DNA of 64,000 nt from Candidatus Rokuibacteriota bacterium (GTDB taxonomy: Bacteria; Methylomirabilota; Methylomirabilia; Rokubacteriales; CSP1-6): the NCBI GenBank assembly GCA_016184365.1, contig JACPCW010000088.1, positions 12,068 through 76,067 of the forward strand. The letters are read 5' to 3'. The first letter of the stretch is position 1. Each line of letters starts with the position of its first letter. Shown here piece after piece: positions 470-59,574 of this stretch. The notes under the pieces were generated by a model. That model was not told the DNA's origin and ran no database searches. It saw nothing but the letters and a program-made list of their open reading frames with translations. The translations under genes and the position numbers were made by a program.

Positions 470-496
470 GGCGGGCCCGGGGAGGCGAGGCCGGCC

Positions 497-2328: not shown

Positions 2329-2343
2329 AACGGGAGGCTGCCA

Positions 2344-3984: not shown

Positions 3985-4019
3985 AGCGGACGGCCCCCTG
4001 ACGGGGGCCAGGGGACGGG

Positions 4020-4985: not shown

Positions 4986-4993
4986 CGCGCGCG

Positions 4994-5992: not shown

Positions 5993-6003
5993 GATTCCAC
6001 CGC

Positions 6004-7362: not shown

Positions 7363-7365
7363 ACC

Positions 7366-8250: not shown

Positions 8251-8264
8251 AGGGGATTCGTGCG

Positions 8265-9140: not shown

Positions 9141-9144
9141 CGTC

Positions 9145-10392
9145 ATGGGTATGACGATCGCGGAGAAGATCCTCGCGGCCCACGCCGGTGTCAACAGCGC
9201 GAAGCCGGGCCAGTACGTCTGGTGCAAGGTCGACGCGACCGGCGGGCACATGCTCCCCGCCCTCGAGCGCCTCGGAGTGGACCGCGTGTGGGACCCGGAG
9301 AAGGTGTTCGTCGTCGACGATCACCAGGCCCCGCCGCCGACGATCGATGCCGCGAACCACGTCAAGAACGTGCGGCGGCTCGTCAAGAAGTACGGGATCA
9401 AAAACTACTTCGAGTACGGGCGGGGCGGCATCCTTCACCAGGTGTTCGCGGAGCACGGCATGTACGCTCCGGGCGATCTGGTCGCCCAGGGCGACTCGCA
9501 CTCGACGTCGGGAGGCGTCTTCAACGCGTGCGTCACCAACGCCGCGCTGGACGGGGTGCACATCCTCGCCTTCGGCGAGCTGTGGTTCCGCGTCCCCGAG
9601 TCGGTGCGCGTGGTGCTGAACGGCACGCTGCCGGCGTGGTGCGTCGGCAAGGACGTCATCCTGAAACTCGCGAGCGAGCTCGGGACCGACTTCGGTCTGT
9701 ACCGGTCCATCGAGTACGTCGGTCCGGTCGCCTCGCAGATGACGCTCGCCCAGCGATGGACCATCACCAACATGGGCGTCGAGGTCGGGGCGAAGTTCGC
9801 CATCTTCGAGGCGGACGAGAAGACGGACGAGTTCCTCCTCGGGCGGGTGAGTCGGCCGTACACGCGCGTCACCGCGGACAGCGATGCGTCGTACGCGGCG
9901 GAGTACGAGTTCGATCTGAGCGACCTCGTCCCGATGGTGGCCCGGCCCGGCGACCCCGGCAACGGGGTGCCCGCGGAGGCGGTCGCCCGCGAGCACGTCA
10001 AGATCGACCAGGCGTTCCTCGGCTCCTGCACCAATGCGCGGCTGGAGGACCTGGAAGTCGCGGCGCGGATCCTGAAGGGAAAGCAGATCCACCCGGACGT
10101 TCGCATGCTGGTGAGCCCGTCCTCGCAGGAGGTCTTCGGGCACGCCTTGAAGGCGGGCTATCTCGGGATCCTCGCGGAGGCTGGCGCGCTCGTGGAGCAC
10201 TCGACGTGCGGCCCTTGCTACGGCGGCCACCTGGGCGTGCTCGGCGACGGCGAGGTCTGCATCTCGACGAGCAACCGCAACTTCCAGGGGCGCATGGGCA
10301 GCCCGCTCGCCAGCGTGTACCTCTCGAGTCCGGCGACCGTCGCGGCGTCGGCGCTCGCGGGCGAGATCGTCGACCCGCGCGCGTACCTGTAG
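9145..10392 (+). CDS. aconitase-family dehydratase large subunit (second LeuC/HacA-like copy)
   Basis: 415 aa. MTIAEKILAAHAG; GSCTNARLEDL; STCGPCYGGHLG; SNRNFQGRMGS. Confidence 0.85.
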   Translation: MGMTIAEKILAAHAGVNSAKPGQYVWCKVDATGGHMLPALERLGVDRVWDPEKVFVVDDHQAPPPTIDAANHVKNVRRLVKKYGIKNYFEYGRGGILHQVFAEHGMYAPGDLVAQGDSHSTSGGVFNACVTNAALDGVHILAFGELWFRVPESVRVVLNGTLPAWCVGKDVILKLASELGTDFGLYRSIEYVGPVASQMTLAQRWTITNMGVEVGAKFAIFEADEKTDEFLLGRVSRPYTRVTADSDASYAAEYEFDLSDLVPMVARPGDPGNGVPAEAVAREHVKIDQAFLGSCTNARLEDLEVAARILKGKQIHPDVRMLVSPSSQEVFGHALKAGYLGILAEAGALVEHSTCGPCYGGHLGVLGDGEVCISTSNRNFQGRMGSPLASVYLSSPATVAASALAGEIVDPRAYL

Positions 10393-10422
10393 AGGCGTTT
10401 TCGAAAACCGAGGAGTGACGCC

Positions 10423-10953
10423 GTGAAAACCGTCTACACCGGCAAGGTCTGGAAGTTCGGCGACAAGATCAGCACGGACCTCATGGTCCCCGGAGCCAAG
10501 GTCCTCGCGCATCCCAACATGAGCCCGCAGGAGGCGGCGCGGTTCTGCATGAGCGCCAACCGCCCGGACTGGGCCGGGACGGTGCAGCCCGGCGACCTCC
10601 TGGTCGGCGGCGTGAACTTCGGTTGCGGTTCCAGCCGCAACGGCTCCGGGCCGCTGAAGGCGCTCGGCATCGCCTGCGTCCTCGCGGAGTCGATCTCGCG
10701 GATCCATCTTCGTAACGCCGTGAACACGGGCCTGCCCACGCTGGTGGCGCCGGGCATCACGAGCTTCGTGGAGGAGGGCCAGCGACTCCGGGTCGACATC
10801 GCCAGCGGCGAGGTGGAGAACCTCGACACCGGCAAGACGATGCGCGTCCAGGGCTGGCCGGCGGACTCGCCGCCCTTCCAGATCCTGATGGCAGGCGGGC
10901 TGGACGAGTTCATGCGGCGCAAGGTTCGCGAGGCCGGCCTGGTCGGGCGGTAG
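10423..10953 (+). CDS. aconitase-family dehydratase small subunit (second LeuD/HacB-like copy)
   Basis: GTG start; KFGDKISTDLMVP and NFGCGSSRNGS motifs. Confidence 0.85.
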   Translation: MKTVYTGKVWKFGDKISTDLMVPGAKVLAHPNMSPQEAARFCMSANRPDWAGTVQPGDLLVGGVNFGCGSSRNGSGPLKALGIACVLAESISRIHLRNAVNTGLPTLVAPGITSFVEEGQRLRVDIASGEVENLDTGKTMRVQGWPADSPPFQILMAGGLDEFMRRKVREAGLVGR

Positions 10954-11062
10954 ACCAGCCGAATCCCTGCCCGAGCCTGCGGCGGCCGACCAAGGAGATG
11001 TTGCAGAGCGCCTCGCGCCCCGCCGCCAGGCCGTGCTCGACGAACCAGCCACATCTAGGGGG

Positions 11063-11097
11063 TTGACCGTAAATGGTCTTATGGATATAACCATAAG
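11063..11097 (+). promoter_or_regulatory. sigma-70-like promoter TTGACC-N17-TATAAC overlapped by inverted repeat CTTATGG-N6-CCATAAG
   Basis: This is the only strongly AT-rich patch in the region. The -10 ends 11 nt before the gntR-family ATG, giving a very short leader or none. The palindrome at 11078-11097 is a candidate autoregulatory operator. Confidence 0.5.
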
Positions 11098-11102
11098 CCG
11101 TC

Positions 11103-11855
11103 ATGGCCGCCAGCGACGTCCGGTTCGACGACGCGACGCCCCTGCACCTGCAGCTCCGGAATCTCGTGCGCTCATCGATCGAGGCCATCGAGCACTCGCC
11201 GGGAAGCCGGCTACCGCCGGAGCGCACGCTCGCCGAGATGTACGGCGTCAGCCGTATCACGGTGCGCCAGGCGCTCGACGCACTCGCGCGCGAAGGGCTC
11301 GTGCGCCGGGGACGCGGACGGGGCGGCGGCACGTTCGTGCAGGACCACGACGGCACGGCGGGCCGGCCGAAGGTGGCGGGTTCGTTCGGCGCGTTGTATT
11401 CCTCGCGGCAGATCGAGCGTGTCGACATTCTCACATTCGCGCGGCGGGCATCGAGCGGTGAGGTGAGCACCGCGCTGGGTCTCGCGCCGGGAAGCGAGGT
11501 CCGGTACATCGAGCGCCTGTTCATCGCGCCGCGAGGCCCGTTGGCCCACGTCCGCAGCTTCCTGCCGCCGCCGATCGGCGACCGCCTCCGGCGTTCCGAG
11601 CTGCGGACGATGATGCTCCACGAGGCGCTCGTCCGGCGTCATCGCGTCAAGATCAGCGAGGCGCGCGACGAGATCGAGGCCGCCCTGGCCGACAGCGTCG
11701 CGGCGCGGCTGCTCGACGTGGAGCTCGGGCGCGCGCTCGTCCGCGTGCGCCGTGTCCTGGTGGGGCGGGGCGACAAGCCGATTGCCCTCTCGCTCATGGT
11801 GATCGCCACGCATCGGTATCAGCTCGTCATCCGCCATCCCGCGTCGCGCGAATAG
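11103..11855 (+). CDS. GntR family transcriptional regulator (HutC-like, UTRA effector domain)
   Basis: HTH ERTLAEMYGVSRITVRQALDALAREGLVRRGRGRGGGTFV followed by a ~150-aa effector domain. Confidence 0.85.
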   Translation: MAASDVRFDDATPLHLQLRNLVRSSIEAIEHSPGSRLPPERTLAEMYGVSRITVRQALDALAREGLVRRGRGRGGGTFVQDHDGTAGRPKVAGSFGALYSSRQIERVDILTFARRASSGEVSTALGLAPGSEVRYIERLFIAPRGPLAHVRSFLPPPIGDRLRRSELRTMMLHEALVRRHRVKISEARDEIEAALADSVAARLLDVELGRALVRVRRVLVGRGDKPIALSLMVIATHRYQLVIRHPASRE

Positions 11856-11914
11856 AACTCACACGGAAAGCCAGGCCCCATGAAGAAATCGACCGTGCCG
11901 CGCGCGCTGTTCCA

Positions 11915-12080
11915 GGGGAACGAACGAGTTACGTCGACCGCACCCGCGACCACCCGCTCGGCAGCTTCCGGGTCTTCGATCTGACGGGATTTGCGAAGGT
12001 GCGCGAATGGCAGCAACGGTATCTGTCTCCTGAGAAGGCTGGCGAAGTACGACCAGTCGATCGGCGCCTACGAACCCTGA
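11915..12080 (+). pseudogene. frameshifted C-terminal remnant of an ICL/PEPM paralog
   Basis: Translates to GERTSYVDRTRDHPLGSFRVFDLTGFAKVREWQQRYLSPEK. After a +1 shift it continues LAKYDQSIGAYEP-stop. This matches the tail of the CDS at 2-469 nearly residue for residue. Confidence 0.75.
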
Positions 12081-12095
12081 GAGGGGAGCGACAAC

Positions 12096-12974
12096 ATGAC
12101 GAACGGTCCTCGTGCGCTCCGCACCCTGCTGGCCGGCCCCGACGTCGTCGTGGCCCCCGGCTGCTACGACGCGTTTTCCGCGGTCGTGGCGCGAGAAGCG
12201 GGCTTCAACGCCGTCTACATGTCGGGCGGGCTGTCGGCCACGTCACTGTGCGGGATGGGTGACATCGGCATCCGCACGCTGTCCGAGCTCGTGCTGCAGG
12301 CGCGCCACATCTGCAACGTCGTCGACGTGCCGGTGATCGCCGACGGCGACGCCGGCTACGGTGGCCCGGTGAACACGTTCCGCCTGATCCGCGACCTCGA
12401 GGACGCGGGCGTCGCCGGCCTGCACCTCGAGGACCAAGACCTGCCCCGCCGCTGCGGCCATCTCTCGGGCAAGCGCCTGGTGTCCGCGGACGAGCACGTG
12501 CTGCGGATCCGCGCCGCCGTCGACGCGCGACGCAACCCCGACTTCGTGATCATCGCGCGGACCGATGCCGTCGCGGTGACGGGGCTGGACGACGCGATCG
12601 CGCGTGCCCAGCGGTACGTGGAAGCGGGCGCCGACGTGGCGTTCATCGAGGCGCTCGAGACGCGCGAGCAGATGACGCGGGCGATCCGCGACGTCAAGGC
12701 GCCGCACCTCGCGAACATGGTCGAGGGCGGCAAGACGCCGAACCTGCCCATCCGCGAGCTCGCCGACATCGGCTTCAAGCTCGTGATCTACCCGTGGTCG
12801 GGATTCGGCGCGGCCTTCAAGGCGATGCGCGCCGTGTGGGCCGAGCTCCGGCGCACCGGCACCACTACGGGGTTCGCCGACCGCATGGAGCCGCTGACGG
12901 AATGGTCGGGCCTGCTCCAGACGGACCGGCTGCTGCGCGACTACGAGCGCTACGTCCTGCCGGACGCGCGCTGA
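12096..12974 (+). CDS. ICL/PEPM superfamily lyase with canonical RRCGH catalytic loop (methylisocitrate/dimethylmalate lyase-like)
   Basis: DGDAGYGG, EDQDLPRRCGH and ARTDA motifs. Confidence 0.85.
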   Translation: MTNGPRALRTLLAGPDVVVAPGCYDAFSAVVAREAGFNAVYMSGGLSATSLCGMGDIGIRTLSELVLQARHICNVVDVPVIADGDAGYGGPVNTFRLIRDLEDAGVAGLHLEDQDLPRRCGHLSGKRLVSADEHVLRIRAAVDARRNPDFVIIARTDAVAVTGLDDAIARAQRYVEAGADVAFIEALETREQMTRAIRDVKAPHLANMVEGGKTPNLPIRELADIGFKLVIYPWSGFGAAFKAMRAVWAELRRTGTTTGFADRMEPLTEWSGLLQTDRLLRDYERYVLPDAR

Positions 12975-12978
12975 TCCC

Positions 12979-14757
12979 ATGATTCCAAACCAGGAGAAGT
13001 CGATGGATTCGCATTGCCTGAGCCGCCGCTCGTTCCTCGGACTGGCCCCGTCGATCCTCGGCGCCGCCGCCGTGCCGACCGCGTTCTTCGAGTCCGTCGC
13101 GTCCGCGGCCGTCGCCGGACGCCCAGTGCCGGAGCTGGTGCTGTCGCACCAGACGACGGGCGGCGAGCCCGAGATGGCGCGGAAGCTGTCCGAGGACCTC
13201 GAGAAGCTGGGACTGCGCATGAAGCTGCGCCCGCTGTCGCTGCAGGCCTGGCTCGACGCGATGACCCAGCGCACCTACGGCGACATGACGAACCGCGTGA
13301 AGACGCCGCTCCCGCAGCGCATCGCGGACCCGGAGTCGTTGCTCTTCGAGACGTATCACTCGAGCCAGGCGCAGTCACCGCGGTACAACTTCGGCAACTA
13401 CAAGCAGCCGGAGTTCGACAAGTGGTACGAGCTCCAGGCGCGGGAGTTCGATCCCAAGAAGCGACTCGAGTACATCGGCCGAGCGGCGAACGTCATCGGC
13501 GCCGACTACTTCGACTGCTTCCGCGGCAACGGCCCCAGCGTGCTCCACGTCTACAACAAGGACTGGACGGGCGGGATCGGCACCGCCGGCTACGGGCTCG
13601 CCGGAACGGCCTTCAACTGGACGTGGCCGCTCATCCGCTCGGCATCGGGCAAGCGCCGCGTGGTGGTGGGACAGCCGAGCATGCGCGCGCACACCAACCC
13701 GTTCGCACCGGACGGATGGTCGTACGAAGGGCAGTACGTCTTCGACCGGCTCGCCACCCTCGACGAGAACCTCAAGATCATCCCGTGGGCGCTCGAGTCG
13801 TTCGGCTCGAAGGACGCCGTCACGTGGGACGTCGTGCTGCGGCGCGGCATGAAGTGGCACGACGGGCGGCCGGTGACGGTGGACGATCTCAAGTGGACGT
13901 TCGACTTCATCCTGGCGCACAAGCCGTCGTTCTTCTCGCCGGTGTGGGACAACGTCGCATCCGTGACGGTCACCGATCCGGCCAGGCAGGCCGTGCGCAT
14001 CGTGTGCAAGCAGCCGTACGCGTCGTTCCCCGCCGCGGTGCTCGTCTTCACGTCGCTCTATCCCCGCCACGTCATCGAGCCGATGATGCGCGAGCAGGGC
14101 GTGAGCAAGCCGCACGAGCTGCGCTTCGAGTCGCGGCACGTCGTCGGCAGCGGGTTTTTCAAGCTCAAGCGGTACACGCGCGACGTCGAGATGGTCTACG
14201 AGGCGAACAAGGACCACTGGTTTGCGCCGAAGGGCGTCGACGAGTTGGTGTGGAAGGTCGTCCGCACCGTCGACGCGATGATGGGCCAGCTCCAGAACCG
14301 CGAGATCGACTTCGCGTACATGAGCTTCACGCCGAGCCAGGTCAAGGAGCTGCTCAAGAGCCCGTACCTGGCCGTCAAGGAGCATCCGACGACGGCGGCG
14401 CCGTACTACACGTTCCGGATCGACCAGCTCCCGTGGCGCGACATCGAGTTCCGGAAGGCCTTCCACTGGTCCGTCGACCGCAACTACCAGGTGCAGGTGA
14501 TGTGGGAAGGCGCCGGGCGCGTGGTCACGGAGGATTCGGTGTTCGTCCCGAGCCATCCCTTCTACACGCCCGTCGAGACCAAGCACGGCTACGACCTCCA
14601 GCGCGCCCGGCAGATCCTGAAGGACGCCGGCTACACGTGGGACGGGAGCGGCCGACTGGTTCTTCCGGTGGACGGCGATCCGAACTTCCGCAAGCGGGTG
14701 AACGACGTGGTGATTCAGTACCCGGGACAGAAGAACCTCTACGCGCCGGTGCTGTAG
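12979..14757 (+). CDS. ABC transporter substrate-binding protein, family 5, with Tat-type signal
   Basis: SRRSFLGLAP twin-arginine motif and VVLRRGMKWHDGRPVTVDDL family-5 core. Alternative start at 13003. Confidence 0.8.
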   Translation: MIPNQEKSMDSHCLSRRSFLGLAPSILGAAAVPTAFFESVASAAVAGRPVPELVLSHQTTGGEPEMARKLSEDLEKLGLRMKLRPLSLQAWLDAMTQRTYGDMTNRVKTPLPQRIADPESLLFETYHSSQAQSPRYNFGNYKQPEFDKWYELQAREFDPKKRLEYIGRAANVIGADYFDCFRGNGPSVLHVYNKDWTGGIGTAGYGLAGTAFNWTWPLIRSASGKRRVVVGQPSMRAHTNPFAPDGWSYEGQYVFDRLATLDENLKIIPWALESFGSKDAVTWDVVLRRGMKWHDGRPVTVDDLKWTFDFILAHKPSFFSPVWDNVASVTVTDPARQAVRIVCKQPYASFPAAVLVFTSLYPRHVIEPMMREQGVSKPHELRFESRHVVGSGFFKLKRYTRDVEMVYEANKDHWFAPKGVDELVWKVVRTVDAMMGQLQNREIDFAYMSFTPSQVKELLKSPYLAVKEHPTTAAPYYTFRIDQLPWRDIEFRKAFHWSVDRNYQVQVMWEGAGRVVTEDSVFVPSHPFYTPVETKHGYDLQRARQILKDAGYTWDGSGRLVLPVDGDPNFRKRVNDVVIQYPGQKNLYAPVL

Positions 14758-14769
14758 GACGCGCCCGCG

Positions 14770-15753
14770 GTGAGACGGTTCCTTGCCGCGCGGATCCTTC
14801 TCATGGGGTTCGTGCTGTTCATGATCGCCACGCTCATGTTCGGGATGTTCGTGCTGCTGCCCGGCGATCCGGCGGCGAGCTTCGTCGAGGAGGGGCTGTC
14901 GCGGAAGGCCCTCGAGCGCCAGCGGGAGCTGTGGGGCCTCGACGCGCCGCTCCACGTCCAGTACCTGCGCTATCTCGGCAACGTGGCGACGCTGGAGTTC
15001 GGCGTCTCGTTCCGCGCGCAGGTGCCGGTGCGCGAGGTGCTGGTCGAGAAGTTCCTGAACTCGATCGCGATGATGCTGCCGGCGCTGATCCTCATCATGG
15101 TGGGCGGCACGGTGATCGGCGCGTACCTCGGCTGGCGGCGCGGCACGGCCGTCGAGAAGACGGCCGTGCTCGCCGGTCTCGCCGTGGAGTCCATGCCGTC
15201 GTTCTTCGCCGGCATCGTGATGCTGATGCTGTTCTCGTATGGCCTCGGATGGCTGCCGTCGTCGGGGATGGGGCCGTCGGGCTCCGGCGGCTCGTTCGTG
15301 GCGACGGTCTTTTCGAGCGACTTCCCGCGTTACGCCGCGCTGCCCGTCCTCACGCTCGCCGTCCGCGGCGTGAACGGCCCGATGCTGCTGATGCGGACGA
15401 GCATGATCGAGATCCGCGGCTCGGACTTCCTCATGCTGCTGGAGGCGAAAGGCGTGTCCGAGCTGCGGATCGTCCGGCACGCGGTGCGGAACGCGATCCT
15501 GCCGATGATCACGTACTTCGGCGTGCTGATCGGGACGCTCTTCCAGGGCCAGGTGCTGCTCGAGACGGTGTTCGGGTGGCCGGGCATCGGGCGCGCGGTC
15601 GTAGATGCGCTCGCCGCGCGCGACTTCCCCGTCCTCCAGGGCGCGTTCTTCTTCACCGCTATCGTCGTCGTCGGCATGAACCTGGTGGTCGACGTCCTCT
15701 ACGGCTACCTCGATCCGCGCGTCCGGGTGACCGGGGACGAGGTCCGCGCGTGA
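14770..15753 (+). CDS. ABC transporter permease (DppB-like)
   Basis: GTG start, 327 aa, multi-TM. Confidence 0.85.
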   Translation: MRRFLAARILLMGFVLFMIATLMFGMFVLLPGDPAASFVEEGLSRKALERQRELWGLDAPLHVQYLRYLGNVATLEFGVSFRAQVPVREVLVEKFLNSIAMMLPALILIMVGGTVIGAYLGWRRGTAVEKTAVLAGLAVESMPSFFAGIVMLMLFSYGLGWLPSSGMGPSGSGGSFVATVFSSDFPRYAALPVLTLAVRGVNGPMLLMRTSMIEIRGSDFLMLLEAKGVSELRIVRHAVRNAILPMITYFGVLIGTLFQGQVLLETVFGWPGIGRAVVDALAARDFPVLQGAFFFTAIVVVGMNLVVDVLYGYLDPRVRVTGDEVRA

Positions 15754-16613
15754 CCCGTCGCGTGCTCGCCGGCAGCCGCGCGCTCGTCGGTGACCCGCTG
15801 ACGGCCGTCGCGTCGGTGGGGCTCGCCGTCTTCGTGCTCCTCGCCGTTTTCGGCCCCTCGCTCGCGCCGCACAAGCCGTTCGAGACGCTGTCGGACGCCG
15901 GCGGACTCCCGCTTCGTCTGAAGGCGCCCGGACCCGGGCACTGGCTCGGCACGACGACGCGCGGGCACGACGTGCTCTCGCAGATGATGCATGGCGCCCG
16001 CATCGCGTTCATCGTGGGCGTGATGTCGGCCGTGGTCGCGGGCCTGATCGGCGCCGCGATCGGGCTGCTGTCCGGCTACTACGGGCGCACCGTGGACCAG
16101 GTGCTCATGCGGCTGACCGATGTCGCGTTCGGGATTCCGACGCTTCCGTTCGCCCTCATCGTCGTCGGCATCCTCGGGCCCGGCGTGCTCAACACCATCG
16201 CCGTCATCGCCGCCATCCTCTGGCGCACGCAGGCGCGCGTGATCCGCTCTCAGGTGCTGACCATCAAGGAGCGGGCGTACATCCGCGCCGCGCGGATCGC
16301 CGGCGCCGGACACGGACGCATCATGCTGCTCCACATCGGGCCGAACATCCTGCCGTTCCTGCTGCTCTACCTGGCGCTCTCCGTCGCGCAGAGCGTGCTG
16401 CTCGAGGCCGGGCTGAGCTTCCTCGGCTTCAGCGACCCGCGCGTCATCACGTGGGGCGGGATGCTGAACGCCGCGTTCGAGGCCGGCGCGGTCCGGACGG
16501 CGTGGTGGTGGGTGCTGCCGCCGGGCCTCGCGCTGTCCGTTGTCGTCGTGTCCTCGTTCGTCGTCGTCCGGCAGTTCGAGGAAGCCGTCAACCCCCGGCT
16601 GCGGACGGTCTGA
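15750..16613 (+). CDS. ABC transporter permease (DppC-like)
   Basis: GTGA overlap with the upstream stop. GTTTRGHDVLSQMMHGARIAF motif. Embedded in a long spurious ORF. Confidence 0.85.
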   Translation: MTRRVLAGSRALVGDPLTAVASVGLAVFVLLAVFGPSLAPHKPFETLSDAGGLPLRLKAPGPGHWLGTTTRGHDVLSQMMHGARIAFIVGVMSAVVAGLIGAAIGLLSGYYGRTVDQVLMRLTDVAFGIPTLPFALIVVGILGPGVLNTIAVIAAILWRTQARVIRSQVLTIKERAYIRAARIAGAGHGRIMLLHIGPNILPFLLLYLALSVAQSVLLEAGLSFLGFSDPRVITWGGMLNAAFEAGAVRTAWWWVLPPGLALSVVVVSSFVVVRQFEEAVNPRLRTV

Positions 16614-16614
16614 G

Positions 16615-17622
16615 ATGCCGCTCCTCGCGATCGAGCGCCTGCGCGTCGAGTACCAGACGCGCGCCGGGGTCGCCCGCGCCCTCGACGACGTGTCGCTGAC
16701 GCTCGGCGACAACGAGTGCCTCGGGCTCGTCGGTGAATCCGGATGCGGCAAGAGCACGCTGGCGCTCGCCGTGCTGCGGGTCCTGCCGCCGAACGGACGG
16801 ATCGCGTCGGGTCGCATCGTGCTCGATGGAACGGACGTCACCGTGCTGTCGCCGCGTGAGCTGCGCCGGCTCCGGTGGGAGCGGATGGCGCTCGTGCCTC
16901 AGAGCTCGATGAACGCGCTCGATCCCGTGTACCGGATCGGCGGCCAGATCGCGGAAGCGATCCGCGCCCATCGCTCGACCCCGGCGGTCGAGGCACGCCG
17001 AGCCGCGGGTGACCTGCTCGCGCTCACCGAGGTGCATCGCGAGCGGATCGACCACTACCCGCACGAGCTGAGCGGCGGCACCCGGCAGCGCGTCGCCATC
17101 GCGATGGCGCTGGCGCTTGGCCCCGCGCTGCTCGTCGCCGACGAGCCGACGACCGGCCTCGACGTGATCGTGCAGGACCAGATCCTGCGACGCCTGCGCG
17201 AGCTGCGGCGCGACCGCGGGATGGCGGTGCTGCTCATCACGCACGACATGGGCGTCGTCGCCGAGAACTGCGACCGGGTCGCGGTGATGTACTCCGGCCG
17301 CGTGGTGGAGCAGGGCGCCGTGGGGCCCGTGTTCGCGGAACCTCTCCACCCGTACACGATGGGCCTGCGCAACGCGTTCCCGAACCTCCTCGCCGACGCG
17401 GCGGAGCTGATCTCCATTCCGGGCAGCCCGCCGAACCTCGTCGAGCCGCCCGCCGGCTGCCGCTTCGCGGACCGATGCCCGTTCGTGCTGGAGCGCTGCC
17501 GGACGACCGACCCTCCGCTCGTGGAAGGCGCGCCCGGTCACTGGACGGCCTGCCTGCGATGGCGCGAAGCAGACGAGCTCCGCGGGAGGGCTCGATCCGG
17601 AGCGACATGGCAGACCGCGTGA
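16615..17622 (+). CDS. ABC transporter ATP-binding protein (DppD/OppD-like)
   Basis: Walker A GESGCGKST, signature LSGGTRQR, and a C-terminal oligopeptide-type extension with CRFADRCP. Confidence 0.9.
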   Translation: MPLLAIERLRVEYQTRAGVARALDDVSLTLGDNECLGLVGESGCGKSTLALAVLRVLPPNGRIASGRIVLDGTDVTVLSPRELRRLRWERMALVPQSSMNALDPVYRIGGQIAEAIRAHRSTPAVEARRAAGDLLALTEVHRERIDHYPHELSGGTRQRVAIAMALALGPALLVADEPTTGLDVIVQDQILRRLRELRRDRGMAVLLITHDMGVVAENCDRVAVMYSGRVVEQGAVGPVFAEPLHPYTMGLRNAFPNLLADAAELISIPGSPPNLVEPPAGCRFADRCPFVLERCRTTDPPLVEGAPGHWTACLRWREADELRGRARSGATWQTA

Positions 17623-18659
17623 TCATCAGCGTGCGCGACCTGCGCGTCTGGTTCCCCGTGCGCCGCACGTTCGTCGACGCCGTTCTGCGGGGCGGGTCCG
17701 GCCGGTTCCTGCGCGCCGTCGACGGCGTGAGCTTCGACCTCCGTCCCGGCGAGATCCTCGGGCTCGCCGGCGAGAGCGGCTGCGGCAAGAGCACGCTCGC
17801 GATGACGCTGCTCGGCCTGAACCGCCCGACGGCGGGTCGCGTCGAGTTTCTTGGCGAGGACCTCACGACATGGATCGCGACGAAACCCGACACGTTTCGT
17901 CGCTCGGCGCAGCTCGTCTTCCAGGATCCGTACGAGTCGCTCAACCCGCGATTCACGGTGGGCCAGACCGTGGAGGAGCCGCTGGTCATCCACGGGCTCG
18001 ATGACGCGACGGGGCGCCGCCGCTGCGCTGCGGAAACGCTCGAGCTCGCCGGGCTGACGCCCGCGCGGCAGTTCCTGCCGCTCTACCCGCATCAGCTGAG
18101 CGGCGGCCAGCGGCAGCGCATCGCGCTCGCCCGCGCCGTGGTGCTGCGGCCGCGGTTCCTCGTCACCGACGAGCCAGTCTCGATGCTGGACGTGTCGGTG
18201 CGCGCGGGAATCCTGCGACTGCTGAAGTCGTTCGCGCGCGATCTGGGCGTGGCGATCCTCTACATCAGCCACGATCTGTCGACGATGAGGCACATCTCCG
18301 ACCGGATCGCCGTGATGTACCTCGGCCGGATCGTGGAGCTCGCCGCGGCCGATGCGATCGTGAGCCGGCCCCGGCATCCCTATACGCAGGCGCTCATGGC
18401 GTCCGTGCCGATCCCGGATCCGGCGCGCCGTCGCGTGCCGCCGCGGATCGATGGGAGCATCCCGAGTCCGATCGGCGAGTTCGCGGGCTGTGCGTTCGCC
18501 AGCCGCTGCCCGCACGTGATGGACGTCTGCCGGCACACCGTGCCGGCGTTGCGCCCGGTCGGGGCTGGTCATGCCGCCGCGTGTCATCTGCACGACGTCA
18601 CTCCCGCCGAGGCGGGAATCTCGAAAGGAGAAACGAATGACCCTGTTGTCCAGAGGTGA
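17607..18659 (+). CDS. ABC transporter ATP-binding protein (DppF/OppF-like)
   Basis: Walker A GESGCGKST, signature LSGGQRQR, C-terminal CAFASRCP. Confidence 0.9.
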   Translation: MADRVIISVRDLRVWFPVRRTFVDAVLRGGSGRFLRAVDGVSFDLRPGEILGLAGESGCGKSTLAMTLLGLNRPTAGRVEFLGEDLTTWIATKPDTFRRSAQLVFQDPYESLNPRFTVGQTVEEPLVIHGLDDATGRRRCAAETLELAGLTPARQFLPLYPHQLSGGQRQRIALARAVVLRPRFLVTDEPVSMLDVSVRAGILRLLKSFARDLGVAILYISHDLSTMRHISDRIAVMYLGRIVELAAADAIVSRPRHPYTQALMASVPIPDPARRRVPPRIDGSIPSPIGEFAGCAFASRCPHVMDVCRHTVPALRPVGAGHAAACHLHDVTPAEAGISKGETNDPVVQR

Positions 18660-19593
18660 ACAGCTGCGCGCATTGATCGAACGCCCGGAGATCCTGGTGA
18701 TGCCCGGCTGCGCCAACGCGCTGCAAGCCGTGATGATCGAGAAGGCCGGGTTCGAGGCGGCCTACATGTCCGGCGCCGCCACGGCGGCGAATCTCATCGG
18801 CATGCCGGACGCCGGCTTCACGAGCCTGACCGAAGTGGTCATGAATGCGCGGTACATCGCGGGCGCCATCAACCTCCCGCTGCTGGCCGACTCGGACACC
18901 GGGTACGGCAACGCCGTCAACGTGCGCCGTACCGTCCACGAGTTCATCAGGGCCGGCGTGGGTGGTATCCACATCGAGGACCAGGTGTTCCCGAAGCGCT
19001 GCGGGTTTGTCTCGGGGAAGGAGGTCGTCCCGATCGGGGAGGCGGTGGGCAAGTATCGCGCCGCCGTCGCCGCGCGCGACGAGCTCGATCCCGGGTTCGT
19101 GATCATCGCGCGCACCGATGCCCGCACCGCGGTGGGCGGCGGGCTCGAGGAAGCGATCACGCGGGCCAAGGCGTACCGGGCGGCCGGGGCCGACGTGGCC
19201 TATTTCGAGGCGCCGCAGTCCGTCGACGAGATCAAGGCGTTCGTGGCCGAGGTCAAGGGCCCGGTCATGGCCACGCTGGTCGCGCTCGACCCGGCACCGA
19301 CGTGGGAGGAGCTCGAGTCCCTCGGCGTCAGCGTCGCGTTCTATCCCGCCCACGGCATGATGGCCGGCAACGTCGCCAACTGGGACTTCCTGCAGGACTT
19401 CAGGAAGCGCGGCCCGCAGGCGGAAGCGGAGCTGAAGGCGCGGACGAAGGGGCATCCGGTCGCCGGGTTCGCGCTCTTCGACCTCGTCGGGTTCCCGAAA
19501 GTGCGCGAGATGGAGGAGCGCTACCTGCCGGTCGAGCACCGGGAGAAGTACGAGCGGTCGACCGGAATGTACACGCCAGGGAGGACGTCGTGA
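18637..19593 (+). CDS. ICL/PEPM superfamily protein, KRCGF loop type
   Basis: AAAGGAG Shine-Dalgarno before ATG 18637. DSDTGYGN, EDQVFPKRCGF and ARTDA motifs; tail FDLVGFPKVREMEERYLP. Confidence 0.85.
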   Translation: MTLLSRGEQLRALIERPEILVMPGCANALQAVMIEKAGFEAAYMSGAATAANLIGMPDAGFTSLTEVVMNARYIAGAINLPLLADSDTGYGNAVNVRRTVHEFIRAGVGGIHIEDQVFPKRCGFVSGKEVVPIGEAVGKYRAAVAARDELDPGFVIIARTDARTAVGGGLEEAITRAKAYRAAGADVAYFEAPQSVDEIKAFVAEVKGPVMATLVALDPAPTWEELESLGVSVAFYPAHGMMAGNVANWDFLQDFRKRGPQAEAELKARTKGHPVAGFALFDLVGFPKVREMEERYLPVEHREKYERSTGMYTPGRTS

Positions 19594-54441: not shown

Positions 54442-57400
54442 TCATTCGGGCGTCGACGCGATCTTCGCGTGAAGGCGCGTCGGCTCCTTGGCATCGATCA
54501 GCGGCGAGAGCGCCGGCATCAGGATCCCCAGTAACCGCACAGGGAGGGCACTGGTGAACTCGTACTTCGCGGCGTTCGGGCCGGGAACATACGCGGTCAC
54601 GGTGCCGAAGAAGCGATCGTCGATGAGGAACGCGAAGGTCGCCACCCGGTTCACCACGCGGGACTCGATCAGTCCGCCCTGCGCTCCGTACGTGTTGTAG
54701 CGGTGGTCCCCCGTGCCGGTCTTGCCGCCCACGACGTGCGTGACGCCCGCGTCGCGCCGGAGGGCCTGGTTCAGGCTCCGCGCGGTGCCCTGTTGCACCA
54801 CGCCGACCAGAGCGCGGAGGACCACCGCCGCGATCTCCGGGCTCATGACCTGTCGCCCCGCCGGCGCCGAGGAGCTGAGCCGCGTCTCGTACGGGGTGTC
54901 CGCGGCGAAGTGGAGCTGCTCCACGAGCACCGTGGGAGAGCGCACGCCATCATTGAGGACGATGCCCATGAGCTCGGCCAGGGCAGCGGGCCGGTCGCCG
55001 GAGCTCCCAATCGCGGTGGCCAGGGAAGGGGTCAGGGACGCGAACGGATAGCCCAGACGCTGCCAGCCGCGATGGATCTCCAGGAAAGCCTCGAGCTCCA
55101 GCAGGGTGGCGATGCGAGTGTCTTGAGCGTTGCGGCGCCGGCTCGTGAACAGCCAGCGATACACCTCCTGGCGCTCTACGGCACTGGCGCCGAGGACCTG
55201 CGAGAGGTCGGCGCGCGGGTGGCGACGCAGATAGGCCACCAGCCACAGCTCGAGGGGATGGACCCGCGCGATATGGCCTCTGTCCATGAGGGAGAAGCGG
55301 GCGGCCGCGTACTTCTCGAACAGCCCCGCGATCGCGCGGTCCGAGAGGGTGGTCCCCGGCAGACGCTGCACCAGGAAGGCCTCGAGGGCCTCGACACCGG
55401 CATCCGGGTTCACGGAACGAAAGACGGTCGCCAACCCGGCGGGTGTGGGATGGAGCCCGCTCAGCAGGAGGCCCAGGGCTTGTTCGGGAGTCTTGCCCTG
55501 GTATTTCCGATAGAACCGCCGGAGGAACTCGCTGCCCTCACGTTCGGCGAAGCGCGTGAGGTAGGCGTGCCGGCGAGGGTCGGCCGGGTCTTCCAGCACC
55601 CGCGCGAGGGAACCCGGTGCTTCGAAGAGGGCGTGATCGACGATGTCCCGCATCAACCGAATGAACACGAGGTTCACGGAATCGCGAAAGCCCTCGCGGA
55701 CCGACGGCACGCGGGCGTTGTCGTCCGGGTTGAAGTTGTGGAAGGTGTGGAGCCCGCCTCCGGTGAAGAAGGCCTGGTCGGGGCTCGCCGAATAGCGGCG
55801 ATCCATCGCCGCCTCCAGCATCGCGGTGAGGCCCGCGCCAGGGGCCTGGGCGAGATACTCGACGGCCCAGGCGGTGAGGCGGTCGCGGGGAGGGATCTTC
55901 ATCGCGCGCAGCTGCTTCGCAGTCAGGTCGGCATAGCGGTGGTGCAGGGTGGCGATGACTTCCAGGTAGGTGATGAGCGTGCGCAGCTTGGCCGTGGAGC
56001 CGAGGTCGAGCTTCGCTCCCGCGTTGATGTCCAGGGGCTGGTCGAAGTTGTCCGTCTGCACCCGGAGCCAGTTGACGCCGGGACCCCGTTCGTAAAGCGT
56101 GACGCTGTAGATCATCCGGGCCGGGTCGCCCCGCTCCAGCAGGTGGAATCCCTTCAGCCCCAGAGCCTCTACAGTGGTGGGATTCCGCAGGGACCGTAGC
56201 ATTCGTGTCACGGCCTCCTGCGAGGGCCCGTCGAGCGTGCTCCGCACGGTGAGATCGAGGCGGTCCAGATCGTACAGGGCGGGCACACCGAGCATCGTGC
56301 TGAGCCTGGCGCGAACGAGATTCGCTCCCTTGCGCTCGCTGAAGTCGGCCGCCACGAGCTGGCGTCCCATCTGGAAATCAAGTCCCCGCCCCAGGGCAGC
56401 GTCCCGCAAGCTGCCGTCGATGATCCCCGCCTCGGCCGCGATCCGCAGATAACTGTCGCTCAGCGCATCGAGCGCCTGGCGATTTTGGACGAGATAGTAC
56501 GAGGGGCGACGTGCGGCCAAGATCAAGCTGAGCACCTGTTTGTACGCTCGCGCGCGGGTCTCGGCGGAGGCCGAGGAATCCGTCAATAGACGGTTGGCTT
56601 CGACGACGTCGACTCCATACCAGGTCCACAAGCCGTCGCCGAGGCCTTGGACCTCGCCGAACCCGGGGGCGGCGGCCAGCGGCACCGAGTTGAGATAGTC
56701 CACCACGATTTGGCGTCGGGCGGGCAGGGTGTCCGCTCCGCCCTGGTAGGCGCGCAGGCTGGCGGACAGCATCTGCCGCAGCTTCTCCCTGGCCGAGTGG
56801 GTGCGGCCGTCAGGGGAGTGGCGGAACTTTTCGAGCTGAGTCGCCAGCGTGCTGCCTCCGATCACCCGGCGCTGATCGCCCACGAGAGTCAGCGCGTTGA
56901 TTCCCACGGCTTTGCCCAAGCGCTCCCATTCGACGGCCGGATTACGGCGTGGGTGGCGGGTGTCCAGCAGTTGCCGGTCCTCGACGAAGAGGAGCGTCAT
57001 CACCACCAGCGGCGGGATCGTCTCGAAGCGTTCATAAATTCGTGCTGGGACGCGGACCCTGTAGAGGAGCCTCTGGTCGCGATCCGCCACGTGCAAACCA
57101 GCCTGGGTCTTCTCGCGATAGATGGGAAACAGCCCCGACCCCGCCGCGTGTTGCAATCCGGCGGACAGCCGCGCCTGGCTGTCGATGCGGTAGCCGGAGG
57201 CTCGCAACCGCTTCAGAAAGTTCGGCAAGCGCGCGTAGCCGAGCCGGACATCGTACGGACCGTTGTCGGGAAAGTGCGGACTCGGGTTGGGACCGGACTC
57301 CAGGTGGAAGCGCAGTCCGCGAGCCAGCCAGGAAAACGTGTGGGCTTCGAGGTTGGCGGTCCGCACCTCCCAGAAGATGGCGAGGAGCACCAAGACGCTG

Positions 57401-57528
57401 ATGACCGACCACCGGAGGATCCGCGTCCGGAGGCCCGCCGTCCGTGGTGTCGTGGAAACGACATCGGCGTCGACGCCTCTGGCGGGAATGGACCGTCCCA
57501 GGACTGAATCCATGGCAGTCGTCTTCAC
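54442..57528 (-). CDS. large membrane-anchored glycosyltransferase-51 (transglycosylase) protein with PBP-like C-terminal domain
   Basis: LLFVEDRQLLDTRH and GGSTLATQLEK GT51 motifs, a long insert, and C-terminal GGKTGTG (KTG). Confidence 0.7.
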   Translation of the reverse strand: MKTTAMDSVLGRSIPARGVDADVVSTTPRTAGLRTRILRWSVISVLVLLAIFWEVRTANLEAHTFSWLARGLRFHLESGPNPSPHFPDNGPYDVRLGYARLPNFLKRLRASGYRIDSQARLSAGLQHAAGSGLFPIYREKTQAGLHVADRDQRLLYRVRVPARIYERFETIPPLVVMTLLFVEDRQLLDTRHPRRNPAVEWERLGKAVGINALTLVGDQRRVIGGSTLATQLEKFRHSPDGRTHSAREKLRQMLSASLRAYQGGADTLPARRQIVVDYLNSVPLAAAPGFGEVQGLGDGLWTWYGVDVVEANRLLTDSSASAETRARAYKQVLSLILAARRPSYYLVQNRQALDALSDSYLRIAAEAGIIDGSLRDAALGRGLDFQMGRQLVAADFSERKGANLVRARLSTMLGVPALYDLDRLDLTVRSTLDGPSQEAVTRMLRSLRNPTTVEALGLKGFHLLERGDPARMIYSVTLYERGPGVNWLRVQTDNFDQPLDINAGAKLDLGSTAKLRTLITYLEVIATLHHRYADLTAKQLRAMKIPPRDRLTAWAVEYLAQAPGAGLTAMLEAAMDRRYSASPDQAFFTGGGLHTFHNFNPDDNARVPSVREGFRDSVNLVFIRLMRDIVDHALFEAPGSLARVLEDPADPRRHAYLTRFAEREGSEFLRRFYRKYQGKTPEQALGLLLSGLHPTPAGLATVFRSVNPDAGVEALEAFLVQRLPGTTLSDRAIAGLFEKYAAARFSLMDRGHIARVHPLELWLVAYLRRHPRADLSQVLGASAVERQEVYRWLFTSRRRNAQDTRIATLLELEAFLEIHRGWQRLGYPFASLTPSLATAIGSSGDRPAALAELMGIVLNDGVRSPTVLVEQLHFAADTPYETRLSSSAPAGRQVMSPEIAAVVLRALVGVVQQGTARSLNQALRRDAGVTHVVGGKTGTGDHRYNTYGAQGGLIESRVVNRVATFAFLIDDRFFGTVTAYVPGPNAAKYEFTSALPVRLLGILMPALSPLIDAKEPTRLHAKIASTPE

Positions 57529-57886: not shown

Positions 57887-58050
57887 TTCGTCACCTCCCT
57901 TCGTCGATGCACGTGATCGGCGCCGACCGGGAATGGAGACGTCACGGCGCGCCGGCGCGCCATACTTCAAACCGCCGGGCGCCCCGCGTCAAGGGCAACT
58001 GCTCTTTCGGCGAATCCTCGGAGGCGCGGTCTCCGTCTCATCCGCGGGTT

Positions 58051-58155
58051 GAACACGCCCTCGAGCTGTTCGCGTCCATCTACGGCGCCGAGGCGGGCAA
58101 CGTCGCGCTCAAGGCGCTCGCCGTGGGCGGCGTCTTCGTCGATGGCGGAATCGCA
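58051..58155 (+). pseudogene. glucokinase (Glk) internal fragment
   Basis: [35 protein letters not shown] matches the conserved Glk C-terminal region. There is no N-terminal part and the sequence diverges after GGIA. Confidence 0.6.
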
Positions 58156-58203
58156 CTGAAAAAATCCGCGATGAGCTGTGAACGTCGACGACGGAGGTAG
58201 GGC

Positions 58204-59574
58204 ATGGATCGCTACGATTTGCTCGTGATCGGCGGCGGCGCCGCCGGGATCAATGCACTCAAGCAGGGCTTGAAGCTGGGCGCGCGCGTGGCGCTGATCG
58301 ATTCGGGGCCGCTCGGGGGCGCCTGCATCAACCGCGGGTGAATCCCGAAAAAGACCTTGGTAAGGTCTGCGCGAGTTCATCAGCTGGTACGACACGCGGC
58401 CAACTTCGGCACGAAGACCGGCGCGGTGACGCTCGACTGGGACGCGGTCGTTCGTCGCCAGCGCGAGATCGTTCGCGAGCTCCAGCCGCCCCCCGCCGCG
58501 TTCGAGCGCTCGGGCGCCAGGGTCTACCTCGCCGACGCGCGCTTCGTGGACGCCCATACCGTCCGGGCGAACGGCGCGAGCGTCCAGGGCGACAAGATCG
58601 TCATCGCCGCCGGCTCCGAGCCCGTGGTGCCGGCGGTGGCCGGGCGCGACCTTGCGATCACCTCCGACGAGATCCTCTTCCTGCCGACGTTCCCCGAGAG
58701 CCTGGTGCTGGTGGGCGCCGGCGTCATCGGGCTGGAGATGGCGGGCGCCTTCGCCGACCTCGGCTCGCGCGTGACCGTGATCGGCCGCGACCCTGAAATC
58801 CTACCGGCGTTCGACCGCGATGTCGCCGCCTACATCCGGACGATCCTCGAGGGCCGGGGCGTGACCTTCTACCTCGGCGCGTCGCTCGAGCGGCTCTCGG
58901 GCACGACCGGCGCAGTGACGGCCCACGTCAAGCGGGACGGTCGCGAGCTCGTGGTCACCGCGGCGCAGGTCTGTCTCGCGGTCGGCCGGCGCTACAACCC
59001 GAAGCGCCTGGGGACCGACGCGCTCGGCCTGGTGATGGGGCGGCTCGGCCTCCGCGTGAGCGAGCACCTCAGGACGTCGCTCCCCCACATCTACGCGGCG
59101 GGCGACGCGGCCGGCAACCAGCAACTCACGCCGACCGCGGCGTACGAGGGGAAGCTCGCCGCGCTGAACGCGCTCAAGGGTGACGTCGCCCGTCCCGACT
59201 ACAGCGTCGTGCCGCAGACGATCTTCACCACGCCCGAGATCGGCGGGGTCGGTCTCACCCACGCCGAGGCGCTCGCCCGCGGGGTGAAGTGCCACGTCGC
59301 CACGCACGACATGCGTGGCGCCTCCAACGGGAGGGCCACCGGGGAAGACGCGGGCTATCTCAAGCTCGTGTTCGACGGGGCGACGGAGAAGGTCCTCGGC
59401 GTCCAGATGGTTTCCTACGCCGCCGCCGAACTGATCCAGCTCGCCGCCCTCGCCATCAGGACCGGCGCCGATGCGCACCTCTTGTCGAGCCAGCTCTCGA
59501 TCCACCCGAGCCACGGCGAGCGGTTGATCAAGGTCTTCGGCCACGAGCACCACGAGGTCTGCGAGCCCGAATAG
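58204..59574 (+). CDS. class I pyridine nucleotide-disulfide oxidoreductase (dihydrolipoamide dehydrogenase/mercuric reductase-like) with in-frame UGA at the second active-site Cys (candidate CxxxxU selenoprotein)
   Basis: GGAGGT Shine-Dalgarno. MDRYDLLVIGGGAAG..LGGACINRG-TGA-IPKKTL aligns with the family signature GGxCxNxGCxPxK. The TGA at 58339-58341 is in frame with the 405-aa ORF 58357-59574. Confidence 0.7.
58352..58368 (+). promoter_or_regulatory. candidate bacterial SECIS hairpin (17 nt)
   Basis: AGACCTT-GGT-AAGGTCT begins 10 nt after the UGA. Confidence 0.55.

Follow-up and report, generated by a model that had tools for sequence, protein, structure and literature searches.

A gene for a flavoprotein disulfide reductase is located at positions 58204 to 59574 (forward strand) of the 64,000-nucleotide stretch analysed in this study, which is hereafter called the window and corresponds to positions 12,068 to 76,067 of contig JACPCW010000088.1 (assembly GCA_016184365.1) of a Candidatus Rokuibacteriota bacterium. 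The window has a G+C content of 69%, and the loci closest to it (93% identity) come from metagenome-assembled genomes (MAGs) of groundwater Rokubacteria. The reading frame starts at ATG 58204, 9 nt 3' of a Shine-Dalgarno sequence, is translated as MDRYDLLVIGGGAAG...GPLGGACINRG, meets an in-frame TGA at 58339-58341, and continues from IPKKTLVRS onwards for 410 more sense codons up to a TAG at 59572-59574. A hairpin composed of AGACCTT (58352-58358), GGT (58359-58361) and AAGGTCT (58362-58368) starts 10 nt past the TGA. On re-reading, the ribosome-binding site, the start codon, the TGA, the 410-codon continuation and the hairpin were all found where the first-pass annotation of this DNA had placed them. 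We propose that this gene encodes a selenoprotein and that its UGA, codon 46, is most likely translated as selenocysteine (Sec), with the hairpin as a putative selenocysteine insertion sequence (SECIS). The features of the gene, all on the forward strand, are as follows.

58189 to 58194, forward: Shine-Dalgarno sequence GGAGGT, read directly.
58204 to 59574, forward: complete reductase coding sequence of 456 codons including UGA-46, with stop TAG 59572-59574 (translation; Pfam matches across the TGA; tblastn matches over residues 1-456 in more than 100 loci).
58204 to 58338, forward: N-terminal 45 codons, with the FAD-binding (flavin adenine dinucleotide) GxGxxG fold and the first redox Cys (purifying selection in 78 distinct genes, see below).
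58324 to 58326, forward: codon TGC of Cys41, first residue of the C-x4-U pair (alignment to solved reductases; invariant).
58339 to 58341, forward: in-frame UGA, codon 46, the proposed Sec at the second Cys position of CxxxxC (alignment of related loci; Cys in solved structures and in loci L031 and L037-L043).
58352 to 58368, forward: SECIS-like hairpin AGACCUU-GGU-AAGGUCU with a 7-bp stem and a GGU apical loop (bacterial SECIS criteria, codon conservation and synonymous substitution rate).
58375 to 58379, forward: possible 3' arm of a lower helix, GUUCA, pairing with UGAAU at 58339-58343 (minimum-free-energy fold; weakly supported).
59503 to 59520, forward: His-Glu acid-base motif H434-P-S-H-G-E439 (alignment to HPxxxE of solved reductases; conservation).
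59542 to 59562, forward: clade-specific C-terminal tail H447-E-H-H-E-V-C453 (conservation; alignment with the GH.E.CCG tails of sister clades).

Gene callers either treat the N-terminal 45 codons as a separate 45-aa open reading frame (ORF) or omit them. In the orthologous locus L001, the 446-kb contig JBFONE010000009.1 of Rokubacteria MAG GCA_040961615.1, the 45-aa ORF is annotated as a Pyr_redox_2 fragment. Of the 120 best database homologues (64-94% identity), almost every one is entered as a protein of ~405 aa that starts with 'M/LVRS' just past the TGA; where the organism is named, it is Candidatus Rokubacteria. These truncated homologues form more than 100 clusters at 90% identity and are labelled 'dihydrolipoyl dehydrogenase family' or 'NAD(P)/FAD-dependent oxidoreductase'.

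Domain and family searches were run on the 456-residue product with Cys substituted for the TGA. The Pfam domain Pyr_redox_2 (4.7e-58) matched residues 4-316 unbroken across the TGA and, together with Pyr_redox (9.6e-23) and Pyr_redox_dim (1.9e-26), covered residues 4-441; the N-terminal GxGxxG motif is present as VIGGGAAG. The best matches among solved structures were MerA (5x1y, 1.2e-68) and glutathione amide reductase (2r9z, 1.5e-67). In both alignments, the second Cys in the motif GG(T/A)C(V/I)NxGC(V/I)PxK (consensus G-G-x-C-x-N-x-G-C-x-P-x-K) lines up with the TGA, which bears out the earlier claim that the stop replaces exactly the second redox Cys. Following the textbook assignment, we take this second Cys of CxxxxC to be the flavin-proximal, charge-transfer Cys and the first, here Cys41, to be the interchange thiol. 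Cys41 is invariant (TGC in 79 and TGT in 9 distinct sequences), and the Cys-x4-Cys redox feature of class I enzymes requires Sec or Cys at the UGA to be complete.

Conservation extends beyond the redox pair. Within the His-Glu motif, H434, P435 and S436 are invariant and E439 is at least 90% conserved. The C-terminal tail, GHEHHEVCEPE in the window, follows the consensus G-H447-(D/E)-H-H450-E-(V/I)-C453-E, in which H450 and C453 are invariant. Other residues that vary little or not at all in the clade are C257 and, in the interface domain, C363, H364, H368 and D369; presumably the segment 363-369 aligns to the partner-subunit stretch that lines the substrate pocket of glutathione reductase. 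The end of the strand at the NAD(P)H (reduced nicotinamide adenine dinucleotide, with or without phosphate) site, 'VTVIGR', appears to be nearer to the NADPH type, with its Arg, than to the NADH type, with its Glu. The product is predicted to be a full-length, dimeric-type, NAD(P)H/FAD-dependent class I flavoprotein disulfide reductase.

Within this class, the family scores were nearly equal for lipoamide dehydrogenase (334 bits), MerA (332 bits) and glutathione reductase (327 bits), and every candidate family was rejected. MerA (TIGR02053, 332.3 bits) fell below its cut-off of 454.45, dihydrolipoyl dehydrogenase (E3; TIGR01350, 334.4 bits) below its cut-off of 408.8, with no E1 or E2 among the Pfam-annotated ORFs of the window, and glutathione reductase below the cut-offs of both of its models (NF004776, 327 versus 480 bits; TIGR01424, 314 versus 606 bits). 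High-Mr thioredoxin reductase/thioredoxin glutathione reductase (TGR) scored 202 versus 475.85 bits (TIGR01438), and the window protein has no GCUG, GCCG or SCCS tail, its tail containing one Cys and no Sec; mycothione reductase and RclA also scored under their curated cut-offs. An AlphaFold2 model built from a shallow alignment of close relatives was unusable (predicted local distance difference test score of 54). Candidate substrates are chalcogen species, small disulfides or persulfides and soft metal(loid)s, with the His/Cys tail assisting. This is a low-confidence guess; the tail resembles the Cys-Cys tails of the MerA-like sister clades described below.

Related loci were taken from species-representative genomes of Rokubacteria/Methylomirabilota (32 loci, among 39 genome loci) and from soil, rhizosphere and groundwater metagenomes (80 loci). 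The first-pass annotation had named orthologues as the place to look for TGA versus TGY (TGC or TGT) at this codon, and the aligned codon proved to be TGA in 109 of the 112 loci (62-93% identity), which represent at least 28 species-level genomes and 80 metagenome contigs. The three others are L004, with TTA, and two with TGC, namely L031 (56% identity, Methylomirabilota) and L043, a distant Bifidobacterium homologue. Cys occupies the position in more distant relatives (e.g., L031 and L037-L043) and in all other flavoprotein disulfide reductases. The interrupting stop is always TGA, never TAA or TAG, and each of the 78 distinct full-length genes contains exactly one in-frame stop. In a codon alignment of these 78 genes, the ratio of nonsynonymous to synonymous substitution rates (dN/dS, Nei-Gojobori) was 0.18 over the 45 codons 5' of the TGA and 0.27-0.39 in the main downstream blocks, from codon 16 past the UGA onwards. 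Given this low ratio and the single stop in all 78 genes, the short upstream piece is translated in frame and under purifying selection. Further disabling mutations, which had been named as a sign of a pseudogene, were thus absent from these genes, and both flanks of the TGA are under purifying selection. Sequencing error is ruled out, because the same TGA recurs in long-read and short-read assemblies, including Mb-scale long-read contigs, from many independent projects and technologies. As judged from these comparisons, the gene is conserved, real and mis-annotated, and it is under selection.

A few copies are aberrant. In L004, a single 2-kb contig, TTA (Leu) replaces TGA at 366-368 and the hairpin is intact; L029 has a deletion directly after the TGA (~6136-6200); and L030, from a long-read MAG, has a premature stop ~314 codons past the TGA. 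These copies may be assembly errors or decaying alleles. In the closest Cys-type relative, L031 (2-1290), the catalytic His is gone (VYPSRGD versus IHPSHGE), as are the His/Cys tail and the pair C363/H364; the gene may be a paralogue that has diverged in function. Since L031 has none of the clade-specific features (C257, the residues of segment 363-369 and the tail), these features travel with the Sec.

The published consensus model of the bacterial SECIS (bSECIS) specifies an apical loop of 3-9 nt whose first or second nucleotide is G, mostly with G or U after it, a stem of 4-16 bp, a distance of 16-37 nt from the UGA to the loop and a free energy of -7.5 kcal/mol or lower. The hairpin of the window agrees with the model in all four respects (GGU loop, 7 bp, 17 nt and -7.7 kcal/mol), and the surrounding 60 nt fold at -14.1 kcal/mol. 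About 1.9% of the TGA triplets in the window precede a perfect hairpin of at least 7 bp with SECIS geometry, and hairpins with a GGU(N) loop and 6 bp or more follow only 3 of the 1359 TGA triplets. From the single sequence, the hairpin is only modestly above chance. The decisive evidence is comparative, as TGA and hairpin are conserved together in more than 100 independent loci.

The hairpin codons AAG-ACC-TTG-GTA-AGG-TCT encode KTLVRS with triplets that are rare in the genome, namely TTG (4.3% of Leu), GTA (1.0% of Val), AGG (5.4% of Arg) and TCT (3.4% of Ser), so that the joint probability of these codon choices given KTLVRS is 2.9e-7. Among 88 distinct sequences, ACC was kept in 78/78, TTG in 84/88, GTA in 82/88 and AGG in 86/86, with neighbouring codons being synonymously variable. 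The synonymous substitution rate (dS) over the six hairpin codons was 0.15, about five-fold lower than the 0.57-0.83 found in most other segments. Six loci (L022, L023, L026, L027, L111 and L123), which were folded one by one and aligned by eye, carry the variant hairpins GGCCUU-GGUC-AAGGCC, GCCCU-GGUC-AGGGC or GGCCCU-GGUC-AGGGCC. In these variants both arms are altered (A-U to G-C, U-A to C-G), the register is shifted by one base and the encoded peptide is KALVKA or KALVRA; the structure and the loop-initial GGU are thus kept despite a change in the protein. The loop GGUC is also the loop tetranucleotide of the fdhF SECIS. In the Cys-type relatives L031 and L043 the hairpin is missing and preferred codons are used. 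The question raised earlier of whether the hairpin is conserved and co-varies was accordingly answered by its retention, by its rare codons and by the compensated variants in six loci.

Evidence for structure beyond the hairpin is slighter. In a comparison of 43 sequences, 92% of the cells of a lower helix, UGAAUCC/GGAUUCA, pair with almost no covariation, and this helix is unproven. Over 58342-58400, G+C at third codon positions is ~0.75 (40 codons past the UGA) versus ~0.9 gene-wide, and more rare codons (CGA, GTT, CAT, GTA and CGA) lie outside the hairpin; the dip may reflect an extra constraint at the RNA level, possibly the lower helix. An Rfam scan of the window gave no match, which is uninformative because Rfam is without a useful bacterial SECIS model.

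TGA terminates 23 of the 32 well-supported ORFs of the window, and the genetic code is therefore taken to be standard. The window and the related loci were also scanned for in-frame TGA codons with coding sequence on both sides. Only two convincing cases were found, the reductase and a fusion of MsrQ with a thioredoxin domain; a scan of the same DNA for further genes with in-frame TGA and a GGU hairpin yielded none that was convincing, and a motif-based scan then gave the fusion. The latter is located at 4474-5604 of L001, 4.7 kb upstream of the orthologous reductase and adjoining an MsrP-like (Oxidored_molyb) gene. It comprises MsrQ, a ferric-reductase-like membrane domain, which runs via a TGA at 5275-5277 into a ResA/TlpA-like thioredoxin-fold domain. 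The TGA takes the place of the first Cys in the active-site motif FWTYG-U-INC (UxxC), the AhpC-TSA match spans the TGA, and the loop of a SECIS-like hairpin, CCCGC-AGUU-GCGGG, lies 25 nt 3' of it. More than 40 database clusters (66-100% identity; one named Rokubacteria) end exactly at '...FWTYG'. Predicted selenoproteins with a thioredoxin fold and UxxC form an established class (review of prokaryotic selenoproteins), and the fusion is probably another unannotated selenoprotein. A 2026 review refers to one Methylomirabilota MAG in which 63 selenoprotein genes are predicted, and the phylum is also reported to have Sec-type Group 4 [NiFeSe] hydrogenases. The second gene of L001 with TGA at a Cys position and the literature on the phylum provide indirect support for Sec machinery in the source genome.

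Several results weigh against a Sec-containing product and should be set beside the evidence above. Searches of the window and ~0.9 Mb of related loci by tblastn with E. coli SelA, SelB and SelD found no selA, selB or selD; ARAGORN found no tRNA-Sec in the ~0.9 Mb of related loci, and the window is without any tRNA gene. The other ORFs of the window that were annotated with Pfam likewise included no Sec-related gene. The absence of the machinery says little either way, because the DNA searched consists of small neighbourhoods of one gene. The stability of the 60-nt fold did not differ significantly from that of shuffled sequences (z = -0.47). On the ungapped alignment, RNAalifold identified no compensatory pairs, and pair counting gave 90% pairing versus 25-47% in slid controls with no excess covariation; as this alignment shows conservation rather than covariation, the compensatory argument rests on the six register-shifted sequences. 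Gene context offers no clear hint of the substrate. Finally, the present data do not tell insertion of Sec from SelB-dependent insertion of Cys.

The alternative that survives best is accordingly one in which the UGA is recoded via SelB and the hairpin to Cys, by a tRNA of the tRNA-ReC type (SelC*) or by a Cys-charged tRNA(Sec), and the product is an ordinary CxxxxC reductase. SECIS-dependent UGA-to-Cys tRNAs have been discussed for other Sec-using phyla, with no report of tRNA-ReC for Methylomirabilota in that source (PMC13582414). If the product were Cys, TGC or TGT, each one base away, would specify the same protein without costly recoding, yet TGY was found at codon 46 in none of the ~110 clade members, even though one substitution would convert TGA to TGY and dS elsewhere is ~0.8. 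Because TGY is absent while synonymous sites elsewhere are near saturation, the residue inserted probably differs from Cys, and we give recoding to Cys a small probability.

Termination at the UGA is somewhat less probable again. It would produce a 45-aa peptide and a separate 405-aa protein from TTG 58357, or the truncated protein alone, and the two ORFs (45 aa and 405 aa) are precisely those called by automatic annotation. Such a split would, however, break up the Rossmann fold that binds FAD and take away one redox Cys; TTG 58357 has no Shine-Dalgarno sequence before it and itself lies inside the conserved hairpin. The two pieces are always in one frame and are separated by the TGA and four codons only, the Pfam match crosses the TGA, and the stop is TGA throughout, never TAA or TAG. 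We consider it very improbable that this lineage uses UGA as a sense codon (for Trp or Gly) or that a near-cognate tRNA reads through it. Reassignments of UGA exist in some bacteria, but here TGA ends most of the well-supported ORFs and interrupts only two genes convincingly, and Trp or Gly at the position of the catalytic Cys would kill the enzyme. A pseudogene, or an error for TGC or TGT, could be suspected from the damaged copies L004, L029 and L030 and from the remnant state of the glucokinase gene upstream in the window, but is effectively refuted by the TGA in 109 loci of independent origin and by the 78 otherwise intact genes with dN/dS of 0.18-0.39.

Translation of UGA-46 as Sec, which we favour, would proceed as follows. 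When the ribosome reaches UGA-46, the hairpin, with its GGU loop 17 nt downstream, would act as a bacterial SECIS and recruit SelB with Sec-tRNA(Sec), so that Sec would be inserted in place of termination. The enzyme would then cycle between a Cys41-Sec46 selenenylsulfide and a selenolate plus thiol, with electrons passing from NAD(P)H to FAD and from there to the Se-S bond, where reduced FAD would attack the selenium. Selenium is a better electrophile and a better leaving group than sulfur. In glutathione reductase, lipoamide dehydrogenase and MerA, the Cys at this position adjoins the flavin and forms a C4a adduct and a charge-transfer complex. The flavin-adjacent selenolate would form a charge-transfer complex with the flavin and the thiol of Cys41 would attack the substrate. 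Judging from MerA and thioredoxin reductase (TrxR), delivery or binding of the substrate may fall to the partner subunit's His/Cys tail. The recoding part of this mechanism rests on comparative evidence; we infer the insertion of Sec rather than Cys, what follows from it for catalysis, which substrate is used and what the tail does.

An exhaustive profile-free search revealed that identity falls from at least 53% within the Rokubacteria clade to at most 37% in the next relatives, several of which are N-terminally truncated in the databases. Some of these sister clades (~33-37% identity) have the TGA at the first rather than the second Cys, in the motif GGT-U-L-[NW]-R-G-C-IPKK (U-x4-C). They originate from MAGs labelled Blastocatellia, 'Actinobacteria' and others, and the positions of the TGA are as follows.

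L126, 5968-5970: TGA of U-x4-C.
L130, 4686-4688: TGA of U-x4-C.
L131, 5336-5338: TGA of U-x4-C.
L136, 6245-6247: TGA of U-x4-C.
L137, 6271-6273: TGA of U-x4-C.

The same codons as in Rokubacteria form a hairpin in these genes, AAG[U/G]CCUU-GGU-AAGGUCU or GGCUCU-GGUC-AGGGCC, the loop of which lies 32 nt past the UGA and hence within the range of 16-37 nt. Most U-x4-C members examined end in a ...GH.E.CCG tail. Their neighbours include arsD, a HesB-like gene and arsA in L126, merT-HMA, merC and CopZ in L131 (a Blastocatellia MAG) and a heavy-metal P-type ATPase in L136. All of the ~16 U-x4-C database clusters are annotated as truncated proteins and none as a selenoprotein, and NCBI models would name these proteins lipoamide dehydrogenase. 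The HesB-like (Fe-S_biosyn) gene of L126 (3104-3400, 98 aa), flanked by arsD and arsA, lies upstream of the reductase; the known selenoprotein families include HesB-like proteins. The two sets of genes indicate that Sec in the class I CxxxxC centre is a wider, unannotated phenomenon, of which the Rokubacteria clade has the flavin-side version.

A more far-reaching possibility, which we regard as unlikely, joins these observations. Cys41-Sec46, C363, H364 and H368, and the tail with H447, H450 and C453 could together constitute a new kind of active site, the selenenylsulfide being more than a faster disulfide, with a novel activity, such as reduction of metal(loid)s or of selenium or tellurium species, or of a low-molecular-weight (per)sulfide specific to Rokubacteria, and at the same time one SECIS hairpin could serve Sec at either Cys across the clades, at 17 nt in one and 32 nt in the other. 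If so, a single recoding signal would let selenium 'move' within an active site in evolution.

Several known systems can be compared with the proposed enzyme. Animal thioredoxin reductase (TXNRD) has the same fold (202 bits with the NCBIfam TGR model; E of ~1e-47 to 1e-50 with the rat, human and mouse TrxR structures) and the same route from NADPH via FAD to an N-terminal centre of the CVNVGC type. In TXNRD, a selenenylsulfide serves as a redox pair, as is proposed for the window enzyme. The Sec of TXNRD, however, lies in a flexible C-terminal Gly-Cys-Sec-Gly tail far from the flavin and its flavin-adjacent pair is Cys-Cys, whereas the Sec proposed here would be one member of the flavin-adjacent pair, and a single Cys and several His residues are found in the tail. 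In addition, TXNRD uses a eukaryotic SECIS in the 3' untranslated region, in contrast to the bacterial in-frame hairpin of the window gene.

MerA is the best solved-structure match and, like the window enzyme, has a functional C-terminal tail that bears Cys. The window enzyme differs in having the single Cys453 rather than a vicinal pair and in being without an NmerA domain, and no mer genes lie nearby. The link to MerA runs through the sister clades, with TGA at the other Cys, neighbourhoods containing mer, ars and heavy-metal ATPase genes, and CCG ends. The hairpin shares with the E. coli fdhF and fdnG SECIS and the consensus bSECIS its position inside the ORF just past the UGA, a small loop with G and then G or U, and a spacing within 16-37 nt; its stem is short (5-7 bp across the loci), it has no obvious bulged U, and the element is putative and known from sequence.

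Two further families have a predicted flavin-linked Sec. Reviews from 2022 and 2026 include among the prokaryotic selenoproteins a flavoprotein of the CoA-disulfide reductase/NADH oxidase type (UGxP) and a subtype of type III sulfide:quinone reductase (HxxU); their 'putative mercuric reductase' is really a UxxU metal-binding domain. The CoA-disulfide reductase/NADH oxidase type, which according to the reviews is predicted only and is not biochemically characterised, belongs to the same pyridine nucleotide-disulfide oxidoreductase superfamily and has a predicted flavin-side Sec and an in-frame bSECIS. It differs from the window protein in being a single-redox-Cys group without a CxxxxC partner, with another motif and subfamily, and its model was not among the top NCBIfam matches of the window protein. 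Type III sulfide:quinone reductase is likewise a recently predicted Sec-containing NAD(P)/FAD-dependent oxidoreductase, but it has a COG1252/Ndh-like family assignment, another motif and an activity linked to quinone.

In the 2026 catalogue, which covers 119 prokaryotic selenoprotein families, there is no class I disulfide reductase with Sec in CxxxxC. A glutathione reductase, lipoamide dehydrogenase or MerA with a Sec pair was found in neither the 2022 and 2026 reviews nor the deep-Sep and BSepDB papers, prior mention elsewhere being possible; no such enzyme came up when full texts were searched for selenocysteine in combination with MerA or dihydrolipoyl dehydrogenase, nor was there an NCBIfam model for one among the matches. 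The first-pass annotation had considered Sec at the flavin-interacting position to be uncharacterised. This stands for the class I CxxxxC centre in the literature examined, with the qualification that flavin-adjacent Sec as such had been predicted, though not characterised, in the two families above.

The neighbourhood of the reductase is variable, and operon-based prediction of the substrate was ruled out on this ground. A glucokinase gene is directly upstream in 24 of 70 informative loci, and a GH63-like hydrolase is downstream in 11 of 53 loci, the window included. In the window, the reductase is accompanied by a glucokinase remnant, a penicillin-binding protein gene and the GH63-like hydrolase gene, and no metal-resistance or 2-oxoacid dehydrogenase genes were found near it. 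The remnant (57949-58170) retains the C-terminal ~70 residues of glucokinase, divergent at the end, and the gene is intact in L001; the divergently oriented penicillin-binding protein gene (54442-57528, reverse strand) fills the rest of the space upstream. Elsewhere in the window, 2-19593 is occupied by a repeated metabolic cassette with four genes of the phosphoenolpyruvate-mutase/isocitrate-lyase family (2-469, partial; 7363-8250; 12081-12974; 18520-19593), two aconitase-family genes and a small aconitase-C subunit gene, a PrpD/MmgE gene, a GntR regulator gene and two sets of peptide-type ATP-binding cassette transporter genes.

The more than 100 clusters of proteins from a widespread soil and groundwater phylum that are now labelled as truncated are thus almost certainly full-length selenoenzymes, and they would add to the catalogue a prokaryotic selenoprotein family within the class of glutathione reductase, lipoamide dehydrogenase, MerA and TrxR. 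A selenolate at the charge-transfer position should alter flavin-adduct and charge-transfer chemistry, and would be a natural counterpart to decades of work on Cys mutants; with Sec at the other position in the sister clades, both variants would be available in nature for comparison. For the organisms themselves, the finding supports the emerging view of Methylomirabilota/Rokubacteria as heavy users of selenium.

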